DNA of 64,000 nt from NCBI GenBank assembly GCA_028534125.1, contig CM052822.1, positions 73,966,001-74,030,000 on the forward strand, read 5' to 3'. Below the pieces are notes generated by a model. The model saw only the letters and a list, made by a program, of their open reading frames with translations, was not told the origin of the DNA and did not search any database. The DNA comes from Lama glama. Its lineage: Eukaryota. Shown here piece by piece: positions 37,745 to 45,700 of this stretch (its first letter is position 1; each line of letters starts with the position of its first letter). Position numbers and translations under genes: made by a program.

Positions 37745-40700
37745 ATGAAGCCCCCCTCAGGGCCGGAGGAGGCCCAGCGGCCTGCCTCAGACATCTGCGT
37801 GTTCGCCAGCAGCTGCACGATGCACGGGCTGGGCCATGTCTTTGGCCCGGGGGGCCTGACCCTGCGCCGGGGGCTGTGGGCTGCAGCCGTTCTCCTGTCG
37901 CTGGCCACCTTCCTCTACCAGGTGGCGGAGAGGGTGTGCTACTACAGGGAGTTCCACCACGAGACAGCCCTGGAGGAGCACGAGAGCTACCGGCTCACCT
38001 TCCCAGCCGTCACCCTGTGCAACATCAACCCGCTGCGCCGCTCACGCCTCACACCCAACGACCTGCACTGGGCCGGGCCGGTGCTGCTGGGCCTGGACCC
38101 CGCCGAACACGCCGCCTACCTGCGCGCCCTGGGCCGGCCCCCCACGCCGCCCGGCTTCATGCCCAGCCCCACCTTCGACCTGGCCCGGCTCTATGCCCGG
38201 GCCGGGCATGCCCTCGAGGACATGCTGCTGGACTGTCGCTACCGCGGTTGGCCATGCGGGCCAGAGAACTTCACCACGGTGAGCTGGCCACCGACCTCTC
38301 CAGCCGGGGACCTGGGACCCACAATCCCAGGTCTTGCTGGCCCAGGCTCCCTCAAAGCCAGGGAACCTTAACACCTGTGCTGTTGGGTCCTTTCCTTCCC
38401 AGTCAGGCCATGACCTCCCACGGCCTTTCTGTTCAGCCCAGGAAGCTGTCCTCCTTGGGCCCCGCCCTGCCACTCAGCTGGATGGCAGTGTGCAAAGTTG
38501 CACCTCCCAGCAAGGGGCACTCACCCAGGCTGGCTCTGGGCCCAAGGTCTAGTCTGTAGAGACCCTGCTTTTGGGGCGTGGGGGGTAACTGGTGTTCTAG
38601 GGCAGGAGACCCCCCTCTGCCAGGGGGAAGGGGCTTGTCTGCTTCCTCAACATTTGGCCAGACCTGGAAGATGGTAACTGGGACCTTCATCCTTTGACAC
38701 CTGTCTCTGAAGAAATGCTTGGCCTATAGGCTGCGCCCTGGGCTGGGAGTGGAGGGGAGAAGCTGAGTGATGGGAGCCCATGAGGGTCCTAATACATGTG
38801 CCTGTAAGAGGGAGGGTCGGGGGCAGTAAGAGGTGGACTCCAGTGTTCAAAGAAGAGACCCAAATAGAGAGAGGATGGGGAGGGAAAATGTCCCACGGTC
38901 CTCGTGTTGGCCCAGGGGAAAGAGCTGGCGGGGCTCCTTGTTCCTGGGTGAGATCTGTCATCTGTCTTTCCACCCCCAGATCTTCACCCGGATGGGACAG
39001 TGCTACACCTTTAACTCCGGCGCCGAGGGGACGGAGCTTCTCACCACTCCCAAAGGCGGCATGGGGAACGGGCTGGAGATCATGCTGGACGTGCAGCAGG
39101 ATGAGTATCTGCCCGTGTGGAGGGACATGGGTATGGGAGCACACGTGTGAGGCTGGGGGTGCACAGCTCGGGTGGCTCTGGGAAGGAGGGGGGGATGGTG
39201 AGGGCCCCCAAAGGCTGTCCTTCCTTGTGAGGAGAAAGCAGGGTTAGCTGGTCACAGTCCTAGGGAAAAGGGGCTGCAGCAGAGGGTCTCCTGGGACTCG
39301 AGCCTCAGGGTCCCACTTCCACTGCAGAGGAGACCCCATTTGAGGTGGGGGTCCGAGTACAGATCCACAGCCAGGAGGAGCCGCCACTCATTGACCAGCT
39401 GGGCTTCGGGGCAGCCCCTGGCTACCAGACTTTTGTGTCCTGCCAGAAGCAACAAGTATCCTCACTGGTGCCTCCCAAGCCCCAGGCTCCCAAACCCCTC
39501 CTCAGCCCACACCACCTTAGACCCCAACCGCCAGCTCCTCAAACCTGTTCCAGTGACCTCACATCCTCCCCAGGCCCACGCTTCTCCCAGAGCCTCCTTA
39601 ACACATCCCTCTACAGCTGAGCTTCCTACCGCCGCCCTGGGGTGATTGCAGCTCTGTACCTCTGGACCCTGACTTTGAGCTAGAACTCTCTGGTCCTCTG
39701 GGTCCCTCCAGTCCCAGCCCAGGCCCCAGCCCTCCATATAGTCTAATGGGGTGTCGCCTGGCCTGCGAGACACGCTATGTGGCTCGTAAGTGCGGCTGCC
39801 GAATGATGCACATGCCTGGTAAGGGGCTGGGAGCAGCAGAGGAAGAGGGCCAGGGGTGAGGGTAGAGAGGCCTGGGGGTCCACTGCTGAAGCTGTCTCCT
39901 CTGCTCCCCGCCCCAGGCGGCGTGCCAGTGTGCAGCCCCCAGCAGTATAAGGACTGTGCCAGCCCAGTGCTGGGTAAGCAGCAGGCCTCCCCAGCATCCT
40001 GTCCCCAGTCCGCTTGGCCCGCGACCCCAACCCCGACCCCGCAGGGCGTGCAGCCTTGACCGGGCGCCTGTGGCCTGCAGACGCCATGCTGCGGAAGGAC
40101 GCGTGCACCTGCCCCAGCCCCTGCGCCAGCACGCGCTACGCCAAGGAGCTCTCCATGGTGCGGATCCCCAGCCGCGCCTCCGCCCGCTACCTGGCCCAGA
40201 AACACAACCGCAGCGAGGCCTACATCACGTGAGCCGGGTCGAGGGGCTGGGGGCCGGGCCGGCACCCTCCTCCGGGTCCAGCCTCCATTCGCAAACCCGG
40301 GTGGGACACCAGTCTGTCCATTTTCACGGGGCTCAGGGACTCTGGGCAAGCTGCTTAACATCTCTGACGTCTCTTCTGAAAAGGGGGACGGTGACACCCC
40401 TCCCCAGAGCTCATGAAAGGACCAGAGAACAGGGCACCTGTTTCTGCAGGCAGCTGGCACTAGGCAAACGCTCTCGGACTCCCTTCCTCCAGGGAGAATG
40501 TGCTGGTGCTGGACATCTTCTTTGAAGCCCTCAACTATGAGACGGTGGAGCAGAAAAAGGCCTATGAAGTGTCTGCCCTGCTTGGTGTGTATGTGTGTGT
40601 GTGTGTGCACCCTGCAGTCTAGGGAGGTGTGGACAGAAAGCACCTGTGAGCTGACAGGTGACCCTGTCTCCGCAGGTGACATTGGCGGCCAGATGGGGCT

Positions 40701-41362
40701 GTTCATTGGGGCCAGCCTGCTCACTATCCTTGAGATCTTGGACTTCCTCTGTGAGGTGGGCCTGGGTCCCAGCCTGGGGTGAGAGGTGGGCAGAATCAAG
40801 CCACAGGATCCAGGGGGAAGGCATGCACTGGCCACCTCCACCACTGCTCACCCCCAGGTGTTCCGGGACAGAGTCCTGGGATACTTTTGGAACCGGAAGC
40901 GCTCCCAAAGGCACTCCAGCACCAATCTGGTAACAGCCCCCTCCTTCTGCCCTGCCATCTCCACTGTGGGTGCTCAGCCCCTCCCCCTGAAGCGTAGACC
41001 ACCATTCCTACCCAGCTGAGAAAAAAAGTGGTGGGGGAGGGCACAGTTTCCTTGGCTAGTCTCTCCCAGCCTCTGACCCTCTCCCTCCTCCCACAGCTTC
41101 AGGAAGGGCTGGGCAGCCATCGAACCCAAGTTCCCCACCTCAGCCTGGGCCCCAGGTAACAAGAAATGCCCCATAAAGTCAAGGGAGGAGGGGCAGGTCC
41201 CAACCAGAGGGTGAAGTTTAGGTCTGGGAGGACAGGGGCAGGAGCAGGGCTGTGTCCCAGTGCTGTGGTCTGTGTCTCACCAGGCCTCCCACCACTCCCT
41301 GTGCTGTCACCAAGCCTCTCTCTGCCTCCCACCACACCTGCTACCTCGTCACCCGGCTCTAG
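37745..41362 (+). CDS. ASIC3: Acid-sensing ion channel 3 (DEG/ENaC family), 11 coding exons, 533 aa
   Basis: Exons 37745-38278, 38980-39130, 39328-39455, 39617-39818, 39917-39973, 40081-40228, 40493-40584, 40676-40755, 40858-40929, 41097-41155, 41284-41362 total 1602 nt. HG motif, FPAVTLCN, Cys-rich thumb, TM2 [14 protein letters not shown] and C-terminal PDZ ligand VTRL. Confidence 0.96.
39456..39616 (+). other. ASIC3: U12-type GT-AG intron (ASIC3 intron 3)
   Basis: Donor GTATCCTC, branch TCCTTAAC at 39595-39602, acceptor CAG at 39614-39616. Confidence 0.88.
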
Positions 41363-41444
41363 ACTGGATGTCTGTATCTTCGGGGCCCCACCCCAACATC
41401 CAGGATGTGGCCAGCTTGCATGCGTCTTTGCTCTCTTCATCCCA

Positions 41445-42744: not shown

Positions 42745-45700
42745 CTAGGGAGGGCAGAAGTCGGAGAAGTAGGGGTGCTGCAGGGCCTCTTCTGCTGAGA
42801 TGCGCTGGACGGGGTTACACTTTAGGAGGTTCTGGAAGCAGAGAAGAGGCAGCAGGTTCAGGCCCAGAGCTTCGCACTCCCCGAGTCCCTCCCGACTAGC
42901 GCCCTGCCCTCGGTCACCTGCAGCAGGTCCCTCCCTGTGGCGTTGAGCTTGGGTACAACGTTCACCAGGGACGTTGTGGCCGGGTACATCGGGTAGGGCT
43001 GTAGGGGACAGGGAGACTCAGACTAGGGCTGTGGGGGCAGGGAGGCTGCTAGGGACATGAACTAAGGGGGGGGGGGGCAGAGGTGAACCCCGACCCCCCA
43101 TTCCCCATCACACCTTATAGTCTGGCAGCTTGGTCATGGCAGGCCACTGCTCCTCGGTTGGTGTCCCCAGCAGCGTGTCCACAGGGTCAAGGATCACTCA
43201 GGTGCAAAGGGGCAGGTGAGGGGCTCTTCCCCTCCTGGGTTCCCCACCCTTCTCACTTTATCCCCCAGCTCATGATGGAAGCCGCCCCCCACACCTGCGA
43301 TGCTCATCTTCAGTCCCACCTGTGTGCTGTTTTCGGAGGGCCAGGTGCTTTACAGACGTTAACTACTTTGACCCAAATCCTGACCCAAGACCTGATGTCT
43401 GTGGTCCTAATGAAGCAGTCAGCCCTCCCCTACTTCACTTATCATCCTCCTGTTCCTTTCGACTCCTTTGTCCTTGTTCGGCAGCTCTTAGCTGGAGAAG
43501 TGTGCACTTGGCTTCCTCTGCCAAGAAGCCCTCCTTATCTACAGGCCACACACTCTCCAGCCAGAACCATGCACCTGCCCTGCCCGGTGACAACCAGGGT
43601 GTCTACTACCCTCTGCCCTCAAGAGAAGTCCCCAGGCACCCCCAGTCCTGACCCAGCCCATCACAGCCCTCCCTCCCTGCACTCTAAGCTCCGTGGCTGC
43701 CTACTCCCCTTCCCGAGGGTGTGAGATGAAGGGAGATGGGAGGATATCGGAAGATCCTCTTCAACTGGTCATCTACGTCGTTGCCAGGAAAGAGAGGCCG
43801 CCCCGCGTTGGCCAGCTCTGGGTGAGAGGCGAGGGGACAAGGGGAGGTGACGCAGGAATAACCCCTCTCACCCACGGCACCACCTGTGCCTTCCATCCCC
43901 ATCCCAGAGGCCCCACTCCCTTCCCCAGAGGGGACTCTCCAGACCCCATCTGTCCACTTAAATGGGAGAGAGAGTGCCTCTGCAGACCCCAGCATGTCAC
44001 CTGCGAAGATGCAGCCAGCTGACCACATGTCAATGGACGTGGAGTACAGCTTGGCCCCGAAGAGGACATCCGGTGGGCGGTACCACAGCGTGACCACCTG
44101 GAGAAGACCCCACCCACGGGGACCCCCTAGTTAGTGGGCTTGGGAGGAAAGAGCTCAGAGAGGAGAGGAAAATAATGTTTGGGGTCCTGGAATAGGAGTT
44201 GGGAGACACTCCTTGGGGACTCCCTCCCTCATCCCCAAGTGCCATCCCGCCACTCACCTCAGCTGAGTAACAGCGAACAGGGATCCCAAAGGCTCGAGCC
44301 AAGCCAAAATCAGCCAATTTCAGCTCCCCGTTCTGAGGGCACGGGAAGGGGCGTGGAGGGGCTTTTCAACAGTCTCGGGGCAGGCCACGCGCTCAGGCCC
44401 CGAGCTCCCACCCTCCCGCCCCGCTCCTCACTCCGTGCCAGCCCAGATGTCCGGCCCTCTCCCAGAGAGGTACCCTGTTTATGAGCAGGTTCTGAGGCTT
44501 CAGGTCTCTGTGTAGCACGTTGCGGCTGTGACAGAATCCCAGGCCTTTTAGCAGCTGGAAGAGGAACGACTGGGGGAGGGGCAGGGAGGAGGTCATCAGA
44601 CCCTCCCGATAGGAAGCTCGCCCAGCAATGGAGCACGCGCCCCTCTTCACCCTCTGCTTTGCCCTGAAACCCCCCCGGGCTTTCAGCACCAAGCTCGCAC
44701 GACATCCTTCCTTCACTAATGAGGACCTACTTTGTACTGTGCTGAGTATTCAAAATGAACGGTGATGGGGACCCTGGTCCCCACTTTCTGAAATTGACAG
44801 CTTAGTGGGCCTTCCTCCCTTTCCAGCCTACACTGATCTCTCCCCTTCCTGGCCTCATTTAAACGCGTACATCATTATTATTCAGCACTTGTTTCCCCAG
44901 GAACCTGGGACAAGGCACTTAGTCTTGGACCTAGAACTGTGCCTGATACACAGCAAAGCATTCAGTAAGTATTTGTGGAATGAATGAATGAATGTATCTC
45001 TTGGAACCTCATCTTCCCACTTCTCAAATGTAAACCATATCACTGACATCAGAGTGTTACTGTCAGGTCAAAGAGATCACAAGAAAATGCCCTCTAAGAT
45101 GGAGGTAGTAACAGGGTATTCTCCTTCTCCTACGCCCCGGAGGGGCCCCAGAACTCGGCACTCAGCAAGCACGTTCACTGAATATAGACTCCAATCCCAT
45201 CCTCAAGGAGCTCCCAGAATGCCAGTTCCCTCACCTTCACAATTTCAGGATCTAGGTCACCATTGCAGCTGTCGAAATACTTCTTCAGGTCCTAAAAAGG
45301 GATGGGGGTGGAGGAATGGGACAGCGTTTAACCTCAGTCTGGGTCCCTATACCCTCCCAAGGCTGCTGTCCCTCGAGCCCCTCTTCACCTGGTCACAGAA
45401 CTCAAATACCAAAGTCAGCTTCTTGTCACTATGCAGGACGTCATGGAGCCTAGGGAGAAGGGAGAGCTGAGCCAGTCAGGGCCACAAGTTTGCTCCTAAC
45501 ATTCTGGTATCAGCCCAGCCCATCTCTGAAGCCCCCACCTCCTCCAAATGACCACACAGGCAAGGAGGACCCCACCCATCTACACACCTGACAATGTTCT
45601 TGTGCTTCAGCTCTTTGAGTAGGCAGATTTCCCGAAGGGCTGAGCTTGGCACTCCCTACACATTGGAGGGGACCGGGTGGGCAGCAGTCACATCCCACCC

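Follow-up and report, generated by a model that had tools for sequence, protein, structure and literature searches.

The window, by which we mean the whole analysed stretch of 64,000 nucleotides, carries on its plus strand an intact ASIC3 gene of 11 exons (37745-41362), whose spliced frame of 1602 nt encodes 533 amino acids with no internal stops and whose introns have AG/GT ends in all ten cases (Table 1). The product is a member of the DEG/ENaC family (PF00858) and, as judged by best match and tree, an ortholog of mammalian ASIC3. Exon 1 finds its best match in alpaca ASIC3 (98% identical), and in a tree of 56 sequences the window protein is paired with alpaca ASIC3 (support 1.00) within artiodactyl ASIC3 (0.96). 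Over residues 1-488 the window protein is separated by 4 differences from alpaca and by 7 from the Bactrian camel record, which marks the window as camelid. The genome holds a single copy of the ASIC3 stretch, the remaining matches being paralogous exons. Protein-kinase exons lie just downstream of ASIC3 on the minus strand (44252-45448) and are matched by a lizard gene model in which a kinase and ASIC3 are fused; we take this neighbour to be CDK5, which is expected here. Intron 7 (40585-40675) has a length of 91 nt and starts with a TG repeat directly at its GTGTGT donor. The draft gene model of the wild camel reads through this intron, ASIC3 isoform models of horse, rat and marmot also continue beyond the exon 7 donor, and the models of horseshoe bat leave exon 7 just before codon 435 and then run out of frame.

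Table 1 Exons of ASIC3 and two codons discussed in the text (nucleotide positions within the window)
Feature	Position	Strand	Remarks
ASIC3 exon 1	37745-38278	+	codons 1-178: N-terminus, TM1 and start of the outer domain
Codon 65, TGC (Cys)	37937-37939	+	position of a lipid-facing Arg (human R65, rat R66) at the top of TM1
ASIC3 exon 2	38980-39130	+	contains Glu211, equivalent to the acidic-pocket Ca2+ residue Glu212 of rat; kept
ASIC3 exon 3	39328-39455	+	contains Glu234, equivalent to Glu235 of rat; kept
ASIC3 exon 4	39617-39818	+	
ASIC3 exon 5	39917-39973	+	
ASIC3 exon 6	40081-40228	+	
ASIC3 exon 7	40493-40584	+	codons 407-438; Asn421, Glu423, Glu426 and Glu432 kept; Ala435
Codon 435, GCC (Ala)	40575-40577	+	pore-mouth Ca2+ site Glu435 of rat; one helical turn above the Asp439 gate
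ASIC3 exon 8 (TM2)	40676-40755	+	Asp439 gate and Gly-Ala-Ser filter (449-451), kept
ASIC3 exon 9	40858-40929	+	
ASIC3 exon 10	41097-41155	+	
ASIC3 exon 11	41284-41362	+	ends at the stop codon

The sequence-only reading had assigned a GCC triplet to codon 435 of a 533-residue ASIC3, and the intact frame of 11 exons confirms this assignment. It had also given Glu for this site in rat and human and equated the residue with the Ca2+ site Glu435 of rat. The aligned records of rat, human, pig and cattle all have Glu in column 435, which is 435 in rat numbering as well, and the identity with the Ca2+ site agrees with PMC5970173. Ala435 is present in independent public records of two alpaca isoforms (XP_072820291 and XP_031529664) and one Bactrian camel isoform (XP_074223981) as well as in the gene model of the wild camel. 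Because these records agree with the window, Ala435 is, on the sequences compared, the camelid-wide state and no error, and it was likely fixed before the camel-alpaca split. Sequencing error and paralogue mix-up were both rejected on the basis of the separate camelid records and the placement of the window protein among ASIC3 sequences. The earlier argument that the passage from GAR to GCC needs two base changes is correct for the codon and fails for the protein: Glu is turned into Ala by only one amino-acid-changing step, GAG to GCG followed by a silent change, and another route leads via Asp (GAC). Of the words sampled from 39300-41400, 14 DNA runs under three organism labels contain a share of 0.96-1.00; since a change of two bases would cost no more than about 1.5% of these words, the shares cannot confirm codon 435.

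Residue 435 was surveyed in 208 species named from protein listings, the site being read by pattern; dromedary, llama, guanaco, vicuna and hippopotamus are absent by name from these listings. There were 174 placentals named and 167 read, seven having been set aside because the site was missing from the isoform used (one of the seven, a horseshoe bat, has Glu at 435 in another isoform). Among the matches listed, 155 of the 167 placentals carry Glu, two (both elephants) Asp and ten Ala, the last comprising 3/3 camelids and 7/7 strepsirrhines (galago, slow loris and five lemurs). Tarsier, monkeys, apes, pigs, peccary, ruminants and whales have Glu435. Outside the placentals Glu435 occurs in none of the 34 species among the matches listed: nine marsupials have Asp and two (tammar wallaby and sugar glider) Ala, the two monotremes have Gly, and so do 20 of the 21 sauropsids, the sole exception being the gopher snake (P0313) with Ser. 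The sites thus sampled form a natural series of Gly (sauropsids and the monotremes P0092 and P0227), Asp (the elephants P0045 and P0217 and most marsupials, P0088, P0090, P0091, P0093, P0094 and others) and Glu (most placentals).

Within this sample Ala435 is rare yet recurrent, and the suggestion that it is special to one lineage was not upheld, given that all seven strepsirrhines and two marsupials among the matches listed share it. The Ala435 groups stand at three separate places in the tree, and therefore Ala would have arisen at least three separate times, wallaby and glider accounting for one event or two. From the distribution on the tree we infer that an acidic residue at 435 characterises therians, and Glu in particular placentals. 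When changes were counted on a placental tree of 124 sequences (four poor gene models excluded), site 435 required 3 and Asp439, Gly442, Gly445 and Leu446 required none; 67% of 427 sites need fewer changes than 435. At the equivalent position ASIC2 has Ala and ASIC1 has Gly, as is also given in PMC5970173, and within the same genome an ASIC4-like exon has Ala and an ASIC1-like exon Gly. The literature search, with most subscription papers outside its scope, found nothing relevant on natural variation at ASIC3 435, and none of the camelid positive-selection papers among the matches listed included ASIC3/ACCN3. The papers found on E435A dealt with engineered mutants. The gene, the site and the effect of E435A are already known, and it is the natural distribution of residue 435 that did not turn up in this search.

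The remainder of the channel was compared with rat at 29 functional or neighbouring positions, and all acidic Ca2+ residues except 435 are kept. The residues equivalent to rat Glu212, Glu230, Glu235, Glu322, Asp358, Asp414, Asn421, Glu423, Glu426, Glu432, Asp439, Glu79 and Arg64 are identical in the window. The pore Ca2+ site of placental type (Glu435 with Asp439) is represented by Asp439, with Glu211 and Glu234 also in place and Ala instead of the acidic residue at 435; the window protein has no new acidic residue adjacent to 435. The gate and filter residues Asp439, Gly442, Gly445, Leu446 and Gly-Ala-Ser 449-451 are present, as are His72 and the acidic pair 77/78 of proton gating. The filter motif Gly-Ala-Ser and His72 both have functional roles in the channel. 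Glu77 in place of rat Asp78 is common (45/126), and rat D78E behaves as wild type (PMC2151616).

Two further positions deserve mention. Cys65 is shared by the window, alpaca and Bactrian camel, and 0/126 non-camelid placentals have it. The corresponding R66 of rat is described in a preprint (bioRxiv 10.64898/2026.01.02.697424) as a surface arginine helping to recruit polyunsaturated fatty acids, R66Q modestly reducing the effect of DHA. Coupled change of residues 65 and 435 was considered and rejected: Ser65 occurs in five lemurs, but lorisiforms combine Arg65 with Ala435, tarsier combines Ser65 with Glu435 and many Glu435 species have His or Gln at 65, all of which break the pattern. Codon 79 (37979-37981) encodes His in the window versus Arg in the alpaca and Bactrian camel records (R80 of rat). 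His79 is found elsewhere in canids, musk deer, hedgehog, platypus and most marsupials, and Cys in horses, rhinoceros, ground squirrels and moles. In rat, R80A, R80C and R80E make desensitisation 2- to 11-fold faster (PMC2151616). His79 may be peculiar to the species or to the individual, and it may alter kinetics more strongly than E435A.

The functional meaning of Ala435 can be approached through the rat mutant E435A (PMC9768671 and PMC2151616), in which the residue, its number and the substitution are the same and the neighbouring pore and the other Ca2+ residues match. The rat change is engineered, whereas camelid Ala435 is natural and stands in a background with other changes (Cys65; Lys429 versus Ala in rat). 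According to PMC9768671, E435A cuts the shift of pH50 between 2 mM and 80 nM Ca2+ from 1.34 to 0.77, the effect of E212A is similar, the double mutant leaves 0.24 and Asp439 counts more. The pH50 at 2 mM Ca2+ is stated in its text to be "remarkably constant across mutants", the mutations acting "mostly by lowering the pH50 at the 80 nM Ca2+ condition" and altering it little or not at all at 2 mM, and mutation of Glu435 leaves the Ca2+ modulation of steady-state desensitisation intact. Table I of PMC2151616 gives desensitisation times of 395 ms for E435A and 385 ms for wild type, and PMC11335074 repeats the picture of Glu435, Asp439 and Glu212. For rat E435G, PMC5970173 reports that the current evoked by removing Ca2+ dropped from 73% to 28% of that at pH 6.6, together with very small currents (134 versus 5397 pA) and poor expression, no pH curve being given; the reverse change in chicken ASIC1 shifts pH50 at 1 mM Ca2+ merely from 6.90 to 6.98. 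The preprint, in its accessible part, lists a pH0.5 of 6.71 for rat E435G versus 6.60 for wild type and reports no trouble with this mutant.

We consider it probable that the intact camelid ASIC3 with Ala435 is a working proton-gated channel in which Ca2+ tuning is partly weakened and the pH threshold at normal Ca2+ is about the same. The trimer would lack the three carboxylates that form a ring one turn above Asp439, the gate, a loss that is visible in the sequence. Asp439, Glu432, Glu211 and Glu234 are kept, so that competition between Ca2+ and H+ should persist; in terms of the Ca2+ block site of rat and human ASIC3 (PMC5970173), which is orthologous, the camelid channel retains Asp439, Glu432 and the acidic pocket without Glu435. 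By analogy with rat E435A, about 57% of the pH50 shift on Ca2+ removal would remain, opening on Ca2+ removal at pH 7.4 would be reduced and not abolished, desensitisation would be unchanged and pH50 would stay near normal at 2 mM Ca2+. The proposal of the sequence-only reading that Ca2+ modulation is altered is thus made likely by the fall from 1.34 to 0.77 in rat. Its companion proposal of an altered pH threshold finds no support in the constancy of pH50 at 2 mM, in the E435G value of the preprint or in the desensitisation of E435A, which resembles wild type. The bearing on acid pain that it suggested is likewise unsupported, and one on muscle metaboreception would be speculative.

Ala435 looks like a tolerated, mildly tuning substitution because ASIC2 and ASIC4 carry Ala and because it recurs in strepsirrhines and two marsupials. 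ASIC2 (PDB 6l6p) and ASIC4 share Ala at the equivalent pore position with camelid ASIC3, although they are different genes and the window protein is ASIC3 throughout; strepsirrhine, tammar wallaby and sugar glider ASIC3 have the same Ala435 in separate tree lineages, the marsupial cases sitting among relatives with Asp and not Glu. Two points argue against a weak effect: the prevalence of Glu in the placentals among the matches listed argues that Glu matters in most lineages, and the tiny currents of rat E435G indicate that other residues at 435 can have large effects. R65C and the few other camelid changes could add to the effect of Ala435 or offset it.

The size of the effect in a setting resembling exercise was estimated by modelling. 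Lactate acts through chelation of Ca2+ and Mg2+ (PMC7801124). Two simple competition models were fitted to the rat numbers, with a drop of 0.29 mM Ca2+ from an assumed 2 mM and with Mg2+ ignored, and gave rough lactate-sized pH50 shifts for Ala435 versus Glu435 of 0.056 versus 0.065 or 0.030 versus 0.053. The part of the lactate effect lost with Ala435 would be 14-43%, or roughly 0.01-0.02 pH units. At 0.1 mM Ca2+, a level given for ischaemic brain in PMC9768671, the modelled shift decreases from about 0.9-1.0 to 0.5-0.7 pH units with Ala435, a gap of 0.35-0.4. Because the modelled loss is so much smaller for lactate than at 0.1 mM Ca2+, Ala435 probably has little effect during ordinary exercise and a greater one only on a steep fall of Ca2+.

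The same numbers bear on the possibility, in our view an unlikely one, that Ala435 is effectively neutral in vivo, Glu435 mattering only at the extremely low Ca2+ of the laboratory and heteromers of ASIC3 with ASIC1 and ASIC2 at 1-2 mM Ca2+ being unaffected. It overlaps with the partial weakening proposed above and differs just in whether the effect reaches the animal. Neutrality agrees with the action of the rat mutants mostly at 80 nM Ca2+ (PMC9768671), with the use of Gly435 by monotremes and sauropsids, and with the finding that two thirds of sites change less than 435, which places 435 outside the most constrained positions. The retention of Glu435 in 155/167 placentals among the matches listed and the modelled fall of the shift at 0.1 mM Ca2+ speak against it.

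It is also rather improbable that camelids, strepsirrhines and some diprotodont marsupials lost the acidic residue by adaptive convergent retuning, each having profited from a reduced response to lactate or low Ca2+, for example through milder metabolic pain or a lower reflex drive from muscle at work. Among the matches listed the non-acidic residue at 435 is always Ala in placentals and marsupials, in at least three separate lineages, and a role of residue 435 in Ca2+ tuning has been measured (PMC9768671). Under a plain mutation model, Gly and Lys are the favoured replacements for Glu, and three changes all to Ala have p of about 0.0003-0.003 in a post hoc calculation; for three changes to any one shared residue p is about 0.03-0.06, also computed after the pattern was seen. 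Because repeated Ala is improbable under this model, selection is filtering the outcome at 435. The same pattern is, however, expected if Ala is the one non-acidic residue that the placental pore tolerates, and its use in ASIC2 and ASIC4 makes this the simplest reading. The small size of the modelled lactate effect also counts against adaptation. We know of no obvious physiology common to camelids, strepsirrhines and the Ala435 marsupials, which weighs on the same side. The poor expression of E435G (PMC5970173) fits Ala as the tolerated residue; the preprint recorded E435G without trouble reported in the part seen. A broader version, similarly doubtful, would make gating by relief of Ca2+ block a late mammalian invention that camelids, strepsirrhines and some marsupials independently turned down by Ala, this being favoured as weaker lactate and low-Ca2+ sensitisation of muscle and cardiac afferents, with the camelid change at 65 also blunting sensitisation by fatty acids.

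Relaxed selection, under which camelid ASIC3 would be weakened or decaying and E435A one of its losses, we judge very unlikely. The replacement of the lipid-facing Arg65 by Cys, seen in no other placental of the 126, would suit it, and the naked mole-rat provides a precedent for a natural species variant of ASIC3 function (PMC5798305), with a proton-insensitive homomer (PMC6790391). The naked mole-rat channel keeps Glu435 and so has a different lesion, whereas the camelid change predicts only a partial loss of Ca2+ tuning. The window ASIC3 shows no sign of frame damage or of excess change at conserved sites: of the 336 columns on which at least 90% of 126 placentals agree, it departs at only 6 (rank 53/128, median 4), and the camelid stem branch is 0.053 compared with 0.043 for pigs and peccary. 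A pseudogene or relaxed gene was rejected, the frame and splice sites being intact and the conserved-column rank and branch length ordinary. Finally, although the ASIC4-like exon of the same genome has the identical GCC codon at the site, it is scarcely conceivable that Ala435 is an artefact of assembly, of a mis-assigned paralogue or of a short gene conversion from ASIC4 or ASIC2, since the other camelid records are independently Ala, the window protein groups firmly with alpaca ASIC3, and the bases flanking codon 435 are unlike the ASIC4-like exon, leaving for conversion an unsupported candidate tract of just a few bases, indistinguishable from chance.

Glu435 is cited as making ASIC3 uniquely Ca2+-gated and, via Ca2+ chelation, lactate-sensitive. 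The importance of its replacement in camelids is limited, as the effect of E435A is already published and partial. The distribution of residue 435 qualifies the published expectation (PMC5970173) of a mechanism that ASIC3 broadly shares from species to species: Glu435 is no fixed mark of ASIC3 but a feature of placentals, and entire clades naturally carry what in the laboratory is the mutant E435A. Camelid, lemur and wallaby ASIC3, together with the Asp of elephant and the Gly of platypus, offer natural test cases for the long-standing question of the share of pore Ca2+ release in ASIC3 gating, and caution is advisable when ASIC3 pain is modelled in mouse lemurs or camelids. If the doubtful view of Ca2+-block relief as a late mammalian invention were true, camelids would carry a naturally de-sensitised acid-pain receptor.
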